Below are positions 1,239 to 30,926 of a stretch of DNA of 64,000 nt, piece by piece. The notes beneath the pieces were generated by a model, which saw only the letters and a list, made by a program, of their open reading frames with translations, made no database searches and was not told where the DNA came from. Position 1 is the first letter of the stretch. Every line of letters starts with the position of its first letter. The stretch comes from a virus, in IMG/VR virus record IMGVR_UViG_3300032246_002821, positions 32,001 through 96,000 of that record; one strand, 5' to 3'. A program made the translations under genes and the position numbers.

Positions 1239-2670
1239 TTGCCAGCTTTTCTTCTATGGCCACTTGTTCCGTGACAGTCAGTTCGTCCAGTTCGATCTCG
1301 CCTCGACCCAGCCTGCCTATCTGCCAGTGCTGCCAGTGTTCATCGTCAGTGTAACTGGTATTGGTGGCTTTGTCAACTTGGATCCAATTGGTGCCATTGA
1401 ATTTGTACAGCAGATCTGGTTTGCCGGTGTTGATGAACAACTGGCCTATCTCACCCGTATCTGGGAATTCGGGGCCCAGTATGCTGCTGTGAGCATTGGC
1501 TGTGAAATCTTCTGCGTCTGCCCCTGCGGCCTGTTCCTTGGCGATGTCTTGCACTGCTTGCAACTGTGATTGCAGATGATTGATAGTGTGTTGTTTGCTT
1601 TCATTCTCTGCCAGCATATGATCCAGTGCTGTGGTCAACTTACTGATGGTGGCATAGTCCGTGTTATCCACCACAGGTGGCTGAGCTTCCAACTTAACGA
1701 TGGCTTCTGCTAATTCTTCTTCCAGTCGCTGTATCTCTGAGTCATCTTTTATCAGCACTTCGCGTATGACTTCCACAGGCACCTGGACTTCTCGGATCAC
1801 CTCCACAGGCACTTCGACTATCTTTTGGATCACTTCAGGATCCTGATGCACTTCTGCTTCTGCCTGCGCTTGCTGTTCAGCTTGATCTTCTTTGCGACGG
1901 TTCATGACCATTGTCACACCCAATACCATCGCCACTGCCAGTGGATCGAATACAGCCACGATGACGATGATCACCCAACGAACCGCTCGTTCCATCATAT
2001 CTTTGTTGGCATTGTCGTCGTATATCAGCTGTGCGATATACTTGATGGGACCAACTTCGGCTTCCATTTTCAGTTGTTCTTGGTTCAGCTTGAGCTTTTG
2101 TCTGCTGAGTTCTGTGATGCGATTGTTACTGGCATCTATGCTGGCATTGAGGCTGTCGCGCTCTTTCTTCTGGCTGTCACGTAATTTGGTAGCTTGTGTT
2201 GCCATAGCCGCAGTGCGGTTGTTGTCACGATCAGCATTAGCCCCTGATCCTTTGAGCAGGCTGCCGACCGCATCGTCCATCTGTGCCATGACTTTTCGGG
2301 CATCGTCGATGCGTCTTTGTTCTATGGCAATGTTCTGGTCCACTTGTTGCACCAGTAGATCCCCGCCCCCAGCCTGGCTGGTCACCTCGATGTGAGCACG
2401 GCTCAGGAACCCGAAAATACCCATACTGGTGATGAACATCAGCACTATCACCGCCAAGCTCATGTAGCTTTTGAGCAGCCATTTCAGATGACCCCAATAG
2501 GTGTGTAGCCACACCGTGGTGACTATCTTGCCCACTTCCAACACACTTCCCATGATAACGATGGGCCAGAACACACCGCTGAATATGGCAGTGAGACCGT
2601 AAATGCTGTAGTATGCTGCCACTCCGCTGATGCTGAGCGCAGTCAATAGCGCGATATAATTTAAAAACAT
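1231..2670 (-). CDS. Multi-pass membrane protein with long coiled coil
   Basis: About three N-terminal hydrophobic helices, a coiled-coil segment, a further TM (WVIIVIVAVFDPLAVAMVLGV) and VEVPVEVIREV repeats. Confidence 0.75.
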   Translation of the reverse strand: MFLNYIALLTALSISGVAAYYSIYGLTAIFSGVFWPIVIMGSVLEVGKIVTTVWLHTYWGHLKWLLKSYMSLAVIVLMFITSMGIFGFLSRAHIEVTSQAGGGDLLVQQVDQNIAIEQRRIDDARKVMAQMDDAVGSLLKGSGANADRDNNRTAAMATQATKLRDSQKKERDSLNASIDASNNRITELSRQKLKLNQEQLKMEAEVGPIKYIAQLIYDDNANKDMMERAVRWVIIVIVAVFDPLAVAMVLGVTMVMNRRKEDQAEQQAQAEAEVHQDPEVIQKIVEVPVEVIREVQVPVEVIREVLIKDDSEIQRLEEELAEAIVKLEAQPPVVDNTDYATISKLTTALDHMLAENESKQHTINHLQSQLQAVQDIAKEQAAGADAEDFTANAHSSILGPEFPDTGEIGQLFINTGKPDLLYKFNGTNWIQVDKATNTSYTDDEHWQHWQIGRLGRGEIELDELTVTEQVAIEEKLANG

Positions 2671-2673
2671 AAA

Positions 2674-3693
2674 TTATTTACCTGTTGTATCAAAGAATTT
2701 ACTGATGCTTTCTGGCATCTGTTGTCCACGACTTCGTTCCAGACTTGTCATATAATCCCAGAATAACACACGGTTCTGCAGATTGCAATCTAATAGTGGC
2801 AGTGACAACCGCTCACGTTCTGCAGGCAGCAACACATTGAGTTGTAAAAATTCCGGATCAGTGAGAGTGAATCTCTCCTGTGTGATGCCCAGATCTGTGA
2901 GATAATCAGCCAGTTGAGCCTGTCCCAGGATGCTGACTGCGTGTAGCACAGTATGCACACTGAGTCTGTTTGTGCATATAGATTGGAATTGTCGTAAATT
3001 ATCAGTTATCCTGTGCCAGCTGGCATTCCATCTGGTCCATTCGTAGCTGTCTGCGAAACCATCTATGCTGGCATTGATCCTCACGGCAGGATGCTCTATG
3101 AATTTTTTGGTTTTCCTGGTATTGTAGGTAAGATTGGTACTCAGGTTCATTGTGTCTATCTGATGATCCAGCAATAGCTGCTGCAACCACTCCACGATAT
3201 CATCATCATACAGTGGCTCGCCCCCCTGGATGTTGATGTTCAGGGGCATATCTATGGTATGGATGAAGCGTTGTATGCGCTCGCGTTGGCTGATGTGTAT
3301 GCTGAAACTTTTTAGTTTCTTTATCTTGTAGTAGCTTTTAAGATGTTCAGGCAGCTGGCTGATATCCTCACTCAACAGGCTGCTATATTCGGGCCTGCAC
3401 ATCAGGCACCTGAGATTGCACTGGTTGCCCACGTTTATGGTCAGGCTGTAATGGTTGGGTGTCTGGCTCAGGCCCAGCCTGGTGCTGATATCCCCTGCTG
3501 CTTCCGTGTGATGGCAGATGTCACAAAAATCGAATCCCGTGTAATTTTGCTGTTGCACATAGTGCATACGCTGCCGGCTGTCGACAAACGTCTGATCTGG
3601 TCTATCTTGTTGTACAGGATCATTGCAGCAAAGACCTATCTTGCCCACAGGATCGAATTTGGCCACCAGCCCTTTAAACGCCAGGCACTTCAT
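2674..3693 (-). CDS. Radical SAM protein with N-terminal extra Cys cluster (Twitch/SPASM-like)
   Basis: CNLRCLMC CxxxCxxC motif, GGEP motif, N-terminal CC and CDIC. Confidence 0.85.
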   Translation of the reverse strand: MKCLAFKGLVAKFDPVGKIGLCCNDPVQQDRPDQTFVDSRQRMHYVQQQNYTGFDFCDICHHTEAAGDISTRLGLSQTPNHYSLTINVGNQCNLRCLMCRPEYSSLLSEDISQLPEHLKSYYKIKKLKSFSIHISQRERIQRFIHTIDMPLNINIQGGEPLYDDDIVEWLQQLLLDHQIDTMNLSTNLTYNTRKTKKFIEHPAVRINASIDGFADSYEWTRWNASWHRITDNLRQFQSICTNRLSVHTVLHAVSILGQAQLADYLTDLGITQERFTLTDPEFLQLNVLLPAERERLSLPLLDCNLQNRVLFWDYMTSLERSRGQQMPESISKFFDTTGK

Positions 3694-11431: not shown

Positions 11432-11896
11432 TTATATGCGCCTATAAAAATAATGGCCGCCTATCTGCGCCGTTTTTACCAGTCTGGGATCGCGAAACGG
11501 ACGATTGTTGAAAAATTCAGCACTGTTGCTGACATCAGTATGAAAGCCCAGCATAACTAGTTCTGCACTGGCCAAACTGCGCTCATATTGCTCTTGGCGT
11601 GTGATTATCAGGGTTTTATCGCAGGCGAATGTGAATTGACAACGGCCCTGCCAGCGTTGGTACACAACATTGCAGATGGTATTGCCATAACGACCGCTGT
11701 TAACCCTGTTCATAATAACTTTGCCCACAGCAATGCGGCCAATATCCGATTCATTACCTGCTTCAAAATATATGGCTGTGGCCATACATTGCAGTTGTTT
11801 TGCATCGGGTTTGGGCGCGGTCCAACTAAACCATTCTGCCTGTGCTGTGTTTAAGCCGATGATTAAGGTTATCACAGCAATGTAAAATCTAATCAT
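11432..11896 (-). CDS. Cell wall hydrolase, SleB/Hydrolase_2 family
   Basis: CMATAIYFEAG.E...G..AV..VIMNRV, VVYQ, CQFT, IGGHYFY; signal peptide; start MIRF behind AAAGGAGG. Confidence 0.9.
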   Translation of the reverse strand: MIRFYIAVITLIIGLNTAQAEWFSWTAPKPDAKQLQCMATAIYFEAGNESDIGRIAVGKVIMNRVNSGRYGNTICNVVYQRWQGRCQFTFACDKTLIITRQEQYERSLASAELVMLGFHTDVSNSAEFFNNRPFRDPRLVKTAQIGGHYFYRRI

Positions 11897-12114: not shown

Positions 12115-12410
12115 AGTGGCCCGTTCTGTTGCCGGGTGGAGCCATACCCCTGGTGGTTACGCTGCTAGAGCGAACTCCTGAGTAGCAAAGTTATCGTTTG
12201 CATTTGTCATTTTGCTTTCTGTCTCAGCTGGTCTTTATCACACCTGTCGATCCTATTTCGCCCCCATCAAAGATACACTGACTCGAAACAGTGCCGGCCA
12301 GTCACCTATCAGTTAGTGGTGTGCTATCCAGTGTATCTATGGTGGAGGCGCCGGAGTACTGCCCTCCGGGTCCAGTGAGTTTATTCCACTTCGCCTCAAC
12401 GACATAAGCA
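12115..12410 (-). ncRNA. ssrA: Two-piece (circularly permuted) alphaproteobacterial-type tmRNA
   Basis: Acceptor piece ends GGACCCGGAG-GGCAGTA-CTCCGG-CGCCTCC-ACCA at 12340. The intervening segment 12339-12266 is closed by the 10-bp stem agatacactg/cagtgtatct. The coding piece starts GGGGGCGAAATAGGATCGAC at 12265 (G3-U70 pair). Tag frame 12201-12157 reads ANDNFATQEFALAA*. Outer ends are approximate. Confidence 0.93.
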
Positions 12411-12413
12411 TAT

Positions 12414-12421
12414 TATTTATA
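12414..12421 (-). promoter_or_regulatory. T4-type late promoter TATAAATA in front of the tmRNA
   Basis: Exact TATAAATA a few nt upstream of the inferred tmRNA precursor 5' end. Confidence 0.65.
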
Positions 12422-12440
12422 GCATTAAATGTGTAGTATG

Positions 12441-15400
12441 TCAACTATTTCTGGGCGATACATCAAATTGACCGTCGGGCCCTGAACCGCCCCAACCAGT
12501 TGTTTCGTTTCTGTCCATTCCAGTTTTCATTGTTTTGAGTATGGCCTGGAATTGGTTACGTATCTTGTCCAGCAAAGGAGCCAACACCTGGCTTCCCAAC
12601 AATGTGGTGCCCAATGCATCCACATTGGATGGTGTCACTTGGCTGAGCATCTCCAACATACCATATACCATCTGATCTGTCAGGAAGGGATTATCATATT
12701 TGGTTGTACCGATGCTGCCGTATAGGATTTTATTACACAGGCTCAGCATCGTGCCCACGAACATCTCATTATTGGTCAGTAATAACCCTTTTTCGTCTAT
12801 GGTGGCAAACAGGTTCTGGCTACGGTTCAGTCCCACCACATAGCACTTGTTACCGATGACCAGTGTATTACGGCCTACAACTTGGCTCAACACATCCATA
12901 CCTATGGTTTTCTTTACCTGCTCGCTGGTGTTGGCCCATTGTATGTCGTAATATGCTTCGTCGGCCTGTGCAGGCAACATATGAGCAGGATCGTTTCCGC
13001 TGTTGATCAATGCTGTATTTCTCAACTGTATATAGATGTCATCTGGATTTTGTGGTGCAGGAGGATCCAACAACACATCAGGCACTATGGGCATTTCGCC
13101 ATTGTAAACAGTCTGGGCGAAACCATAGGGATCATTGTAATATTTGCTCCTGGGCAGATCGAATCGACCTGTGTCTATACCCAGCTCTGTCAATAATTCT
13201 TTGTTTTTACCCTGACGCATAGCTGCTTTTATGCTGTCTCCCCAGATGTCATCGGTGGCAACTCGTTCGAGGAAATGTCCCATTTCTCCATAACCCATAT
13301 TCATTCCGTGATAGGGCAGCTGGCTTGCGAACACGAATGCGTTGGTGGGGTTCTGATCCAGTCCATCTGTGTTGAAATGATCTATACCGAAAGTCTTGCT
13401 CATATGGTTTTCTTTAAGCAACTGAGCACAACTGGCCAAATGCGCTGCTTCGCTGGCAGCAAGCAGTTTTTTCAATGTGGGATCAGTCGTGTTTTTTATC
13501 ACAGTCAGCTGTGCTTCCACATAAGGGATGAAATCTGTAAGACAAGCGTCCAGACTGGTATAAACTATACCATCATAAGGGGTGGTGCCGAAATCGTGGA
13601 TCACTGGCAGACCAGTTGCACCCAGCGGCACTGCATTGCCATCAGCATCTGTGACATTGCTCAGATATTGAGTGCTGGTGCTGGTATCTCCAGTGATGGG
13701 ATTGGTTATAGTTTTGGTTGGCAGTGTACCTGTCAAACCTCCTGTCAAACTGTTGCTGACATCCGCTGCGTTCACCACTTTTGTCAGTTTATTAGTGGGA
13801 GCACCAGCCCAGGGCACACTCACTTTAGGTGTGATAACGATAGTGTCCACATTAGTGCTGCCAGCTGGAGGTGTGCCTCCACCTGATACACTTGTTCCGT
13901 CAGGAGCAGGTACATTATAGAGACCGTTTATTATGTTGTGCATGATATTCAATCTGCGTTGAAGTTCCTGCCCATCAGTGGTGGCCATCACCGCATCATT
14001 GGCCGCGATGATATGTGGCAGAGTGTCGTTATGCACATAACCAGCACAAGTACCCATGAAATCTGCCATAGTTATTTCGCCTATGGTACCGCCACCGAAA
14101 CCATATGTGCTCTGTATCTCGTCTACGGCAGGCTGATAGTATGGCGTGCTCATCTGGCTCACGTGGTTCAGATCCAGGCCAGGATCCACTTTGCTCAACA
14201 CCATACCCACCTGTTGGAAATTTTCAGCTCTGGTGATGCCCAGGCTCATGAAGTGTTCGCCCAGTTCTTTGAAGTTATTGTGCGGACTGCTCTGGCTCAT
14301 ATTGGGCATCATGGTCTTGTAATCTGTCAGCTGTCCCAGATGTGTAACAGGTGTGCTCACATTGAAATGGCTGCTGACACTAGCCACTGCTGTGGGATCG
14401 CTGATCTGTGTCAGCACATTCTGCACACTCTTGTCGTACCTGGGATCATCCACGCCTGCCAGAGGCACACCAGCTGTGACCAATTTGGTAGTGAGACCTG
14501 TCTTGGTTCCCAGACCAGCATTGAGTATCTGATTGGCCACGTTGCCAGGTTGCATAAGCCTGGTGGGATTACTGGTGCTGAATGTGCCCATATTCAGCAT
14601 ATCAGTGCTGGCGCCAGCAAGATTCCTGGTTAGACTGGTCACTCCATAACTTAGCACATCATTCATATTGCGGAAATTGGCCCCCAACGCACCAGGACCT
14701 TGGGTACCGAATTTTGCCGCACTGGCTTCACTAGCTGCGCCCACCATCTGATTGGCTATGCCGCTATAAGCGTTGGATACGCCCAGATTGTTCATCATTG
14801 CATTGAGGCCGCCGCCCACTGCACCCCCCACCATATTATTGGCCACGTTCTTGATCATACCCTGGAGTCCACCATTGGCCGCGAACTGCTGCATCACGTT
14901 GGGCAGATTCATGGGATTTTGCATTATTGCATTGAGGGGCGCCATCAGTTGTCCCAGTGCTCCATTGATAGCACCATTTGCGATGCCAGCCAGCTGTGGT
15001 GGCAACACTCCTGTGAGGCTGGGTAGTATGCTACCGCCCAGTTGGCTTATCTGTTGCATTATGGGGCCAGTGATGCTGCTCATAGCACTGCCCAATGCTC
15101 CCTGAGCGAATCCACCCAGGCCCTGCCCGCTCATTATGCCGCTGATGCCGCCCTGCAAGGCACCCTTCATCATATCGCCAGCCACACCTGTGATCCCAGC
15201 TGCTCCCAGCGCATTGGTCAACTGGCTGGTCAGTCCATTGGTTGCCATTCCCAGTGCGTTCTGTAATCCAGCTGCGCTCATGAGACTGGCGGGATTCATC
15301 CCGCTGCTGGCACAGCCAGCACCTCCCGCGCCTGGTGCGCCGGGCATACCAGGAGGACCTCCTGCTGCACCAGCAGGTGGTTTGGCATTGGGATCTATGT

Positions 15401-27956: not shown

Positions 27957-27963
27957 CTGGTAT

Positions 27964-28296
27964 TTATAGGCTGGCAGCTTTGCTAGCCATCTGGTCCACA
28001 GTGTTGGCCTGGGCCTCAGGATTGGGTTGGCCCTGTAACATCTGTTCGTCTTGTCCTATAGTGATGCTGTTCTGATTATAATCGGTCACAAGATTCTGGA
28101 TGTGATTGTTGTCGCGATATAATGCTTGGAAGTCGTCGTAATTGAAACTGTAGCCCATATTGCTCATCATCTTTGCAATGCTGCTGATGGGAACAGCAGT
28201 ACCTGGTTTGGTTTTGGCCTTCAGGTACTGCAATATGGTCATTAAGATTCCGGCTTGGCTACTGACAAAATCCGGGGCGACTTCCAAAAGTTTCAT
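27964..28296 (-). CDS. Hypothetical protein
   Basis: Start MKLLEV directly after the upstream stop. Confidence 0.65.
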   Translation of the reverse strand: MKLLEVAPDFVSSQAGILMTILQYLKAKTKPGTAVPISSIAKMMSNMGYSFNYDDFQALYRDNNHIQNLVTDYNQNSITIGQDEQMLQGQPNPEAQANTVDQMASKAASL

Positions 28297-29194: not shown

Positions 29195-29220
29195 AGGATT
29201 GTCCTTGTATTTGTAAGTAT

Positions 29221-29658
29221 TTATAGTAAGTTGGCGGTTTTTTCCAATTCGTGTATCTGGTTTTTCAGATTATCCAGCTCACCATCTGCCCTGGCCAGAC
29301 GATCTTCGTACACCCTTTTATCAGGATTCATACGGAACAAGTGCTTGTAATGGTGCTGATCTTTGACGAAAATGTCATATTTTTGATCGATACCCTGGAT
29401 CGCTCTGATGATTTTGTGCTTTTTCAGGGTTATGAACGCGGCTGCAAGCACAGCCAACCGTTTTTGTCTTAGTTCAGTTATCACGTTTCCGTTTTTATCT
29501 GTGACTTGCCACAAGTTTTCTGTGGGACTGATATGAAACTTTCCCACTTGCAAATTGCCCATATGATTTTTTACTATCAATTGCTTGGTAGTAATATCTT
29601 CATACTGCTGTTTAATAAAGTTTTGTACTTTGTCATACTGCTGAGATACATTTTTCAT
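29221..29658 (-). CDS. Hypothetical protein
   Basis: 145-aa ORF, co-oriented with neighbours. Confidence 0.65.
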   Translation of the reverse strand: MKNVSQQYDKVQNFIKQQYEDITTKQLIVKNHMGNLQVGKFHISPTENLWQVTDKNGNVITELRQKRLAVLAAAFITLKKHKIIRAIQGIDQKYDIFVKDQHHYKHLFRMNPDKRVYEDRLARADGELDNLKNQIHELEKTANLL

Positions 29659-30859: not shown

Positions 30860-30926
30860 CTTATTTCTCCAAAAAATTGCGCTTGTACGCTACAATTATT
30901 TATACCAGATGTAGAATATCGGCTGA

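Follow-up and report, generated by a model that had tools for sequence, protein, structure and literature searches.

The two-piece tmRNA of Caulobacter was reportedly described by Keiler, Shapiro and Williams in 2000. The gene analyzed here shares with the Caulobacter tmRNA (RF01849) the permuted order, the G3-U70 pair, an encoded CCA, a GGCRGUA T-loop, a tag that opens with ANDNFA and ends in AA, and a pseudoknot around AACAGAA. It scores 135 bits, compared with 282-308 bits for three canonical bacterial genes and 91-115 bits for a bacterial lineage with a 6-bp T-stem. Set against the canonical bacterial RNAs, it has no 5' hairpin in its acceptor piece, shows no evident PK1, and is shorter by about 45 nt downstream of the stop codon. 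Its -10 box is TATAAATA, where the bacterial promoter has CTATAT.

Two-piece tmRNAs of phages have been described before and are common, and the present gene is a good example. The two-piece ssrA of phage Melnitz comes from a study that counted 53 unique two-piece tmRNAs in a set of 18,146 phage genomes (Buchholz et al. 2022, PMC9004378). Melnitz (a Methylophilales phage), Mosig (a Pelagibacter phage) and T4-like marine myophage contigs resemble the present case in combining a permuted alpha-type tmRNA with a large myophage-like genome and no phage smpB (PMC9004378). The present gene differs from this group in its 6-bp T-stem and in showing no evident PK1. A glutamine riboswitch is reported near the tmRNA of Melnitz, whereas an Rfam search found none in the present window. 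DNA-level BLAST gave no link between this gene and cultured marine phages.

The Sinorhizobium jumbo phage Phosso (PV764938) has a helicase 48% identical to that of the present phage, an alpha-type permuted tmRNA of 108-113 bits, and no smpB. Unlike in the present gene, the spacer of its tmRNA is about 410 nt long, the T-stem has 5 bp, PK1 is present, and TGTAAATA replaces the TATAAATA box described below. The Phosso tmRNA is unannotated (positions 2400-3089 of our locus L001, equivalent to PV764938 349553-350242). The tRNA-like domain likewise has unannotated matches in Ruegeria phage vB_RpoS-V10, Rhodobacter phage RcXuper and Roseobacter phage DSS3P8. Other phage-borne ssrA genes that need host SmpB are those of the Bxz1-group mycobacteriophages, Bacillus phage G (one-piece) and DS6A (tRNA-like domain only) (Hudson et al. 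2014, PMC4131195). Their RNAs differ from the present one in being unpermuted or truncated and in belonging to other bacterial tmRNA lineages (PMC4131195). The minor variant traits of the present case are the lack of an evident PK1, the 6-bp T-stem, and a nearby ArfA-like gene.

A permuted tmRNA gene in a viral genome

The window, the whole 64,000-nt stretch analyzed here, comprises bases 32001-96000 of a 182,953-bp IMG/VR virus record, for which the CheckV completeness estimate is 54%. A circularly permuted ssrA gene occupies 12410-12115 on the minus strand, in a 545-nt gap without genes. An earlier note, made from the letters of the window, had recognized a permuted two-piece tmRNA at this place. 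All of the elements that it listed were found on the minus strand (Table 1). The acceptor piece lies upstream of the coding piece, with a 74-nt spacer between the CCA end and G1; the intervening segment is closed by a perfect 10-bp stem; and the acceptor stem carries G3-U70 and is followed by an encoded CCA. The GGCAGUA T-loop, the 6-bp T-stem and the tag frame read as the note had given them. The tag resumes at an Ala codon and runs to a UAA stop, with an ANDN start and an end consisting of a hydrophobic residue plus AA.

Table 1. Features of the tmRNA gene and its promoter, in positions of the window.
Feature	Position	Strand	Remarks
-35 box TTGACA	12439..12444	-	overlaps the TGA stop (12443-12441) of a 1169-aa ORF
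TATAAATA, T4-late-type -10 box	12414..12421	-	exact; also reads as the sigma-70 hexamer TATAAA
Acceptor piece	12340..12410	-	about 71 nt; 5' pairing strands, P2 strand, T-arm, acceptor 3' strand, ACCA
5' strands of the acceptor piece	12410-12406; 12404-12401	-	UGCUU; UGUC; pair with the coding piece
P2 strand, acceptor piece	12379-12373	-	CUCACUG
T-arm	12351..12369	-	CCGGAG (12369-12364), 7-nt loop GGCAGUA, CUCCGG (12356-12351)
Acceptor 3' strand	12350-12344	-	CGCCUCC, then ACCA (discriminator A) ending at 12340
Intervening segment	12266..12339	-	74 nt; predicted to be excised
Closing stem arms	12338-12329; 12280-12271	-	AGAUACACUG; CAGUGUAUCU; perfect 10-bp stem
Leader before G1	12270-12266	-	UUGAU
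Coding piece	12115..12265	-	about 151 nt; includes AAAUAGGAUCGAC, tag frame, 3' pseudoknot
Acceptor 5' strand	12265-12259	-	GGGGGCG; 7-bp acceptor stem with CGCCUCC, G3-U70
P2 strand, coding piece	12246-12239	-	CAGGUGUG
Coding-piece partners of the 5' strands	12223-12220; 12217-12213	-	GACA; AAGCA; pair with the 5' end of the acceptor piece
Tag frame	12157..12201	-	resume codon GCA, ANDNFATQEFALAA, stop UAA
3' H-type pseudoknot	12118..12149	-	around conserved AACAGAA; stems GGGU (12149-12146)/ACCC (12137-12134) and GGCUC (12143-12139)/GGGCC (12122-12118)

The covariance-model search that the note had proposed gave a clear result. The Rfam alpha_tmRNA model (RF01849) matched with 135.5 bits (E 7.9e-37), far above its gathering score of 50, and the full model (1-355) aligned at 12448-12115. 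The tmRNA_permuted model (RF04321) matched over its full length with 95.2 bits against a gathering score of 47. Judged by its sequence, this is a real, conserved, phage-borne permuted tmRNA gene of alphaproteobacterial type.

The RNA is compact. PK1, a typical though not strictly defining element of this RNA class, has its model positions deleted, and the distance from G1 to the tag is 64 nt compared with 80-88 nt in most relatives; the place of PK1 is occupied by a helix between the two pieces (12410-12401 with 12223-12213). The stop-codon hairpin that is normal for tmRNA is absent. A minimum-free-energy co-fold paired the 5' region of the acceptor piece with the end of the tag frame; this fold was rejected, as the relatives back the P2 helices instead.

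Conservation among viral relatives

At least 119 IMG/VR contigs contain an 18-base core motif from the tRNA-like domain. The 18 motif-bearing contigs that were scanned with Rfam all carry alpha-type permuted tmRNAs, with 55-142 bits for the alpha model and 80-127 for the permuted model. Anchored parsing yielded 115 viral tmRNA genes (loci L003-L121), and the 18 of these that were scanned with Rfam were all confirmed. Of the 115 genes, 82 have a tag frame that opens with GCNAAYGAY; diverse as they are, nearly all 82 tags have an ANDN start and an AA end (mostly ALAA, RLAA or AQAA).

Helices were assessed in an alignment of 12 precursors (this gene and 11 viral relatives), scored on our helix model and compared with shuffles. 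Paired cells amounted to 85.8% compared with 74.3% after shuffling, a level reached by none of 500 shuffles, and the covariation score was 0.380 versus 0.168 for shuffles and about 0.1 for slid partners. Pairing is complete (100%) in the T-arm and the acceptor stem, and all 12 precursors keep G3-U70. The stem that closes the spacer is 92-100% paired with many compensatory changes. Of the helices that join the two pieces, UGUC/GACA is 100% paired with swaps between GC, UA and AU, and UGCUU/AAGCA, just upstream of the tag, can form in every relative inspected by eye. Both stems of the 3' pseudoknot vary in a compensatory fashion among relatives; the formal count there is weaker (48-79% paired), in a region where the alignment is poor.

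ARAGORN reported nothing at the tmRNA site. Run with -m, it found 70 of the 115 viral alpha-type permuted tmRNAs identified by anchored parsing and missed 45. The 6-bp T-stem was considered as the cause of the miss in the present gene and rejected, because a test copy with the extra pair deleted was still undetected. ARAGORN thus misses about 40% of such genes, and phage two-piece tmRNAs have probably been undercounted in the literature.

A rare T-stem shared with a bacterial lineage

The T-stem has 6 bp in place of the usual 5, and the acceptor/T helix has 13 bp instead of 12. The 6-bp form is rare. It is present in 3 of the 115 parsed viral alpha-type tmRNAs, namely this gene, L069 (a 107.7-kb contig) and L018, the last of which has changed its outer pair in a compensatory way. 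Of the 401 alphaproteobacterial genomes sampled, one, G399, has the 6-bp form, and there the 34-nt sequence of T-arm and acceptor is identical to that of the phage gene. The identical 34 nt also occur in 3 of the 14 searched relatives of G399 (G426, G429 and G430; 4 of 15 with G399 included), and in these four genomes the 6-bp form is the sole alpha_tmRNA match. As their only tmRNA, the variant is expected to work in cells. The gene of G399 (C1:163819-164146) lies among chromosomal oxidoreductase genes and has a CTATAT -10 box.

The bacterial tmRNA with the 6-bp T-stem is divergent (91-115 bits), with a PK1 insertion, a short 3' domain and the tag ANDNVVMDARLAA. Because this one bacterial lineage is short there too, that trait is not phage-specific. 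G427 and G428, which are related to the G399 lineage, carry canonical genes of 292-308 bits and one weaker second match each. A search of bacterial genomes by tag, with too strict a pattern, gave a single MAG. The rare T-arm offers a lead to a candidate host lineage among the alphaproteobacteria.

A composite promoter

The earlier note had placed a T4-type late promoter directly before the gene, and this claim stands in part. The exact TATAAATA box is conserved in 64 of 112 viral tmRNA loci; in 62 of these it lies 66-82 nt before the CCA end, mostly 73-82 nt, and its background rate is 0.11 per kb. Phosso, Atu_ph07 and PA5oct encode gp55 homologues, and each of the three near-complete viral genomes with a tmRNA encodes a strong one; T4 served as the positive control. 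What does not stand is the plain late type. A late promoter is expected to have no -35 element, whereas a perfect, conserved TTGACA lies 17 nt upstream of the box, so that the promoter also looks sigma-70-like. A profile search (phrog_234, phrog_12791 and phrog_223 among the profiles) found no gp55, gp45 or gp23 in the contig, which is about 54% complete.

The -35 box is within one mismatch of TTGACA in 52 of the 64 TATAAATA-bearing loci, and the spacer is 17 nt in 48. In the alignment all 12 precursors have ATAAATA, and nearly all have the leading T; the sequence of the spacer is not conserved. At the position of the box the Rfam model has UAUAUU, a conserved element of bacterial ssrA promoters. 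In 925 kb of viral loci, 47 of the 51 composite promoters stand directly before a tmRNA gene. The tmRNA promoter reads as a composite one, not one of the plain late type, and we infer that it may be transcribed by the host sigma-70 polymerase early and again by a gp55-type factor late in infection.

A promoter that works in a single phase has to be weighed against this reading: it could be a plain sigma-70 promoter, used early, with TATAAATA present by chance, or a purely late promoter with a relic TTGACA. We take this possibility seriously, at odds somewhat below even. The contig has many promoters of sigma-70 type: 35 of its 133 TTGACA sites are followed at 16-18 nt by a TAnnnT -10 box. PA5oct, which depends on host RNA polymerase, uses TTGAC with TATAATA promoters (PMC7318152), and the tmRNA of Melnitz follows an early promoter (PMC9004378). 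Seven other TATAAATA sites of the contig have no -35 box. However, both elements and the exact 17-nt spacing are conserved jointly while the spacer sequence is not. Sigma-70 prefers a T at -7, which TATAAA lacks. The A at -7 is nevertheless kept, which argues for a gp55-type factor and against a plain sigma-70 promoter; the -35 box is kept as well, which argues for sigma-70 and against a purely late one. A composite promoter remains our preferred reading.

The contig contains nine copies of TATAAATA, eight of them intergenic and facing a downstream gene. Its only other composite promoter lies outside the window (G000:C1:141421-141450, plus strand) and consists of AAATAGTTGACAT, a 16-nt spacer and TATAAATA; it has AAATAG upstream of the -35 box in common with the tmRNA promoter. 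Three boxes without a -35 element stand upstream of ORFs at 27961-27968, 29218-29225 and 30897-30904 (minus strand) and are candidate plain late promoters. For two of these the ORF starts 20-40 nt downstream, and the box at 27961-27968 lies just before the ATG of a crude ORF. One of the ORFs behind the three boxes resembles a virion structural protein (phrog_14154).

The locus and its phage

PA5oct, Atu_ph07 and Phosso are relatives of this phage, itself a jumbo phage. Genes near the tmRNA include those of a ribonucleotide reductase, a DnaB-type helicase, a primase, a UvsX-like recombinase and a tail-spike-like protein, and the helicase shares 51% identity with its PA5oct counterpart and 48-49% with those of Atu_ph07 and Phosso. 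Upstream of the tmRNA gene lies the 1169-aa ORF whose stop overlaps the -35 box. A search of viral contigs and cultured phages found no relatives of this ORF, and synteny is therefore not traceable through it. Downstream lies a Hydrolase_2 cell-wall hydrolase (11432-11896, minus strand) that opens with a signal peptide; its true start is likely the ATG at 11896, behind AAGGAGG. A Hydrolase_2 homologue lies within 6 kb of the tmRNA in 32 viral loci, either up- or downstream and always on the same strand.

No intrinsic terminator was found 3' of the tmRNA gene. The 218-nt stretch between tmRNA and hydrolase has no Rfam match and is not conserved in the nearest relative, L069. Several viral relatives have a tRNA gene directly after the tmRNA. 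Glutamine riboswitch aptamers were seen directly after the viral tmRNA in L051 (1019-1072) and about 2.6 kb upstream of it in L029 (241-289). A freshwater-2 RNA is present in the viral tmRNA locus L019 (1167-1245) and absent from the present window.

This context bears on the origin of the gene. Integration often takes place at tmRNA genes, and prophages can contain ssrA fragments (PMC4383910, PMC9004378), so a host ssrA gene or fragment might be retained at a prophage attachment site or in DNA flanking a prophage. The present gene, however, is complete and lies 44 kb inside a 183-kb viral record, flanked on either side by phage genes, in a window of uniform G+C content (44-52%). Its promoter is of phage type, with TATAAATA as the -10 box, whereas the bacterial gene with the same T-arm has CTATAT, and the same tmRNA family recurs in dozens of viral contigs. 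We regard a host origin of this kind as extremely improbable.

SmpB, ArfA and the role of the RNA

The note had reported no smpB in the window and had suggested reliance on host SmpB. A profile search (PF01668) found no SmpB in the window or in the rest of the 182,953-bp contig, which is 54% complete. SmpB is also absent from eight related records: Phosso, Atu_ph07, PA5oct and five tmRNA-bearing viral records, three of them near-complete. Four of these eight smpB-less phage records are complete or near-complete. Because SmpB is missing from these phage records, the RNA is taken to use host SmpB, and the suggested dependence fits this absence.

A 47-codon ArfA-like ORF (6394-6251, minus strand) lies 6 kb from the tmRNA and matches Pfam PF03889 with 26.4 bits against a cut-off of 25.5. 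A second tmRNA-bearing viral genome with an ArfA-like ORF is the 150-kb G004.

The RNA might instead be a decoy that binds host SmpB or ribosomes and damps host trans-translation, leaving rescue to the phage ArfA-like factor. Neither PK1 nor a stop-codon hairpin is evident, the acceptor/T helix exceeds the usual length by one pair, and the ArfA-like ORF is close by; moreover, the tRNA-like-domain-only tmRNA of mycobacteriophage DS6A reportedly inhibits host tmRNA (PMC4131195, PMC11915505). Yet this RNA and its family retain an intact tag frame with an A-rich upstream context, an LAA end and a stop codon, and the 3' pseudoknot covaries. The same 6-bp T-arm, as the sole tmRNA form of four bacterial genomes, must work there. 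The decoy is therefore improbable, and we favor a functional tagging RNA.

Proposed mechanism

We put the probability that the locus is a functional phage-encoded, circularly permuted ssrA gene making a two-piece tagging RNA at roughly 0.85. The analysis shows the sequence features, model scores, covariation, conservation and phage context, whereas processing, charging, tagging and timing are what we infer.

A single precursor would be transcribed from TTGACA-17 nt-TATAAATA, with the start near 12409 as the probable 5' end of the acceptor piece. Folding of the precursor would pair both strands of the acceptor stem. The 74-nt spacer, held by its 10-bp stem, would then be removed through an RNase P cut before G12265 and trimming by host nucleases back to the CCA at 12340. 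The predicted products, an acceptor piece of 71 nt and a coding piece of 151 nt, would stay together through the acceptor stem and three short P2 helices. Host AlaRS would charge the RNA via G3-U70, and host SmpB and EF-Tu would deliver it to ribosomes stalled on broken mRNAs. Translation would resume at the GCA at 12201, add ANDNFATQEFALAA and stop, and the LAA end would direct the product to ClpXP-type proteases. The composite promoter would allow expression both early, with host sigma-70, and late, with a gp55-type factor. The net effect would be that the phage adds ribosome-rescue capacity during infection.

Implications

TTGACA, 17 nt and TATAAATA together form a conserved hallmark of the phage tmRNA family and may serve as an aid to annotation. 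The shared rare T-arm provides a testable host lead for an uncultured phage. A broader and rather doubtful proposal is that large alphaproteobacterial phages run a rescue programme of their own. It would comprise a minimal tmRNA, a composite promoter almost confined to the tmRNA in related viral loci, RNA present from early to late infection, a mini-ArfA, and a T-arm matched to the host lineage. As read here, the phage would invest in ribosome rescue, with a tmRNA and an ArfA-like gene 6 kb away, and would leave SmpB to the host.
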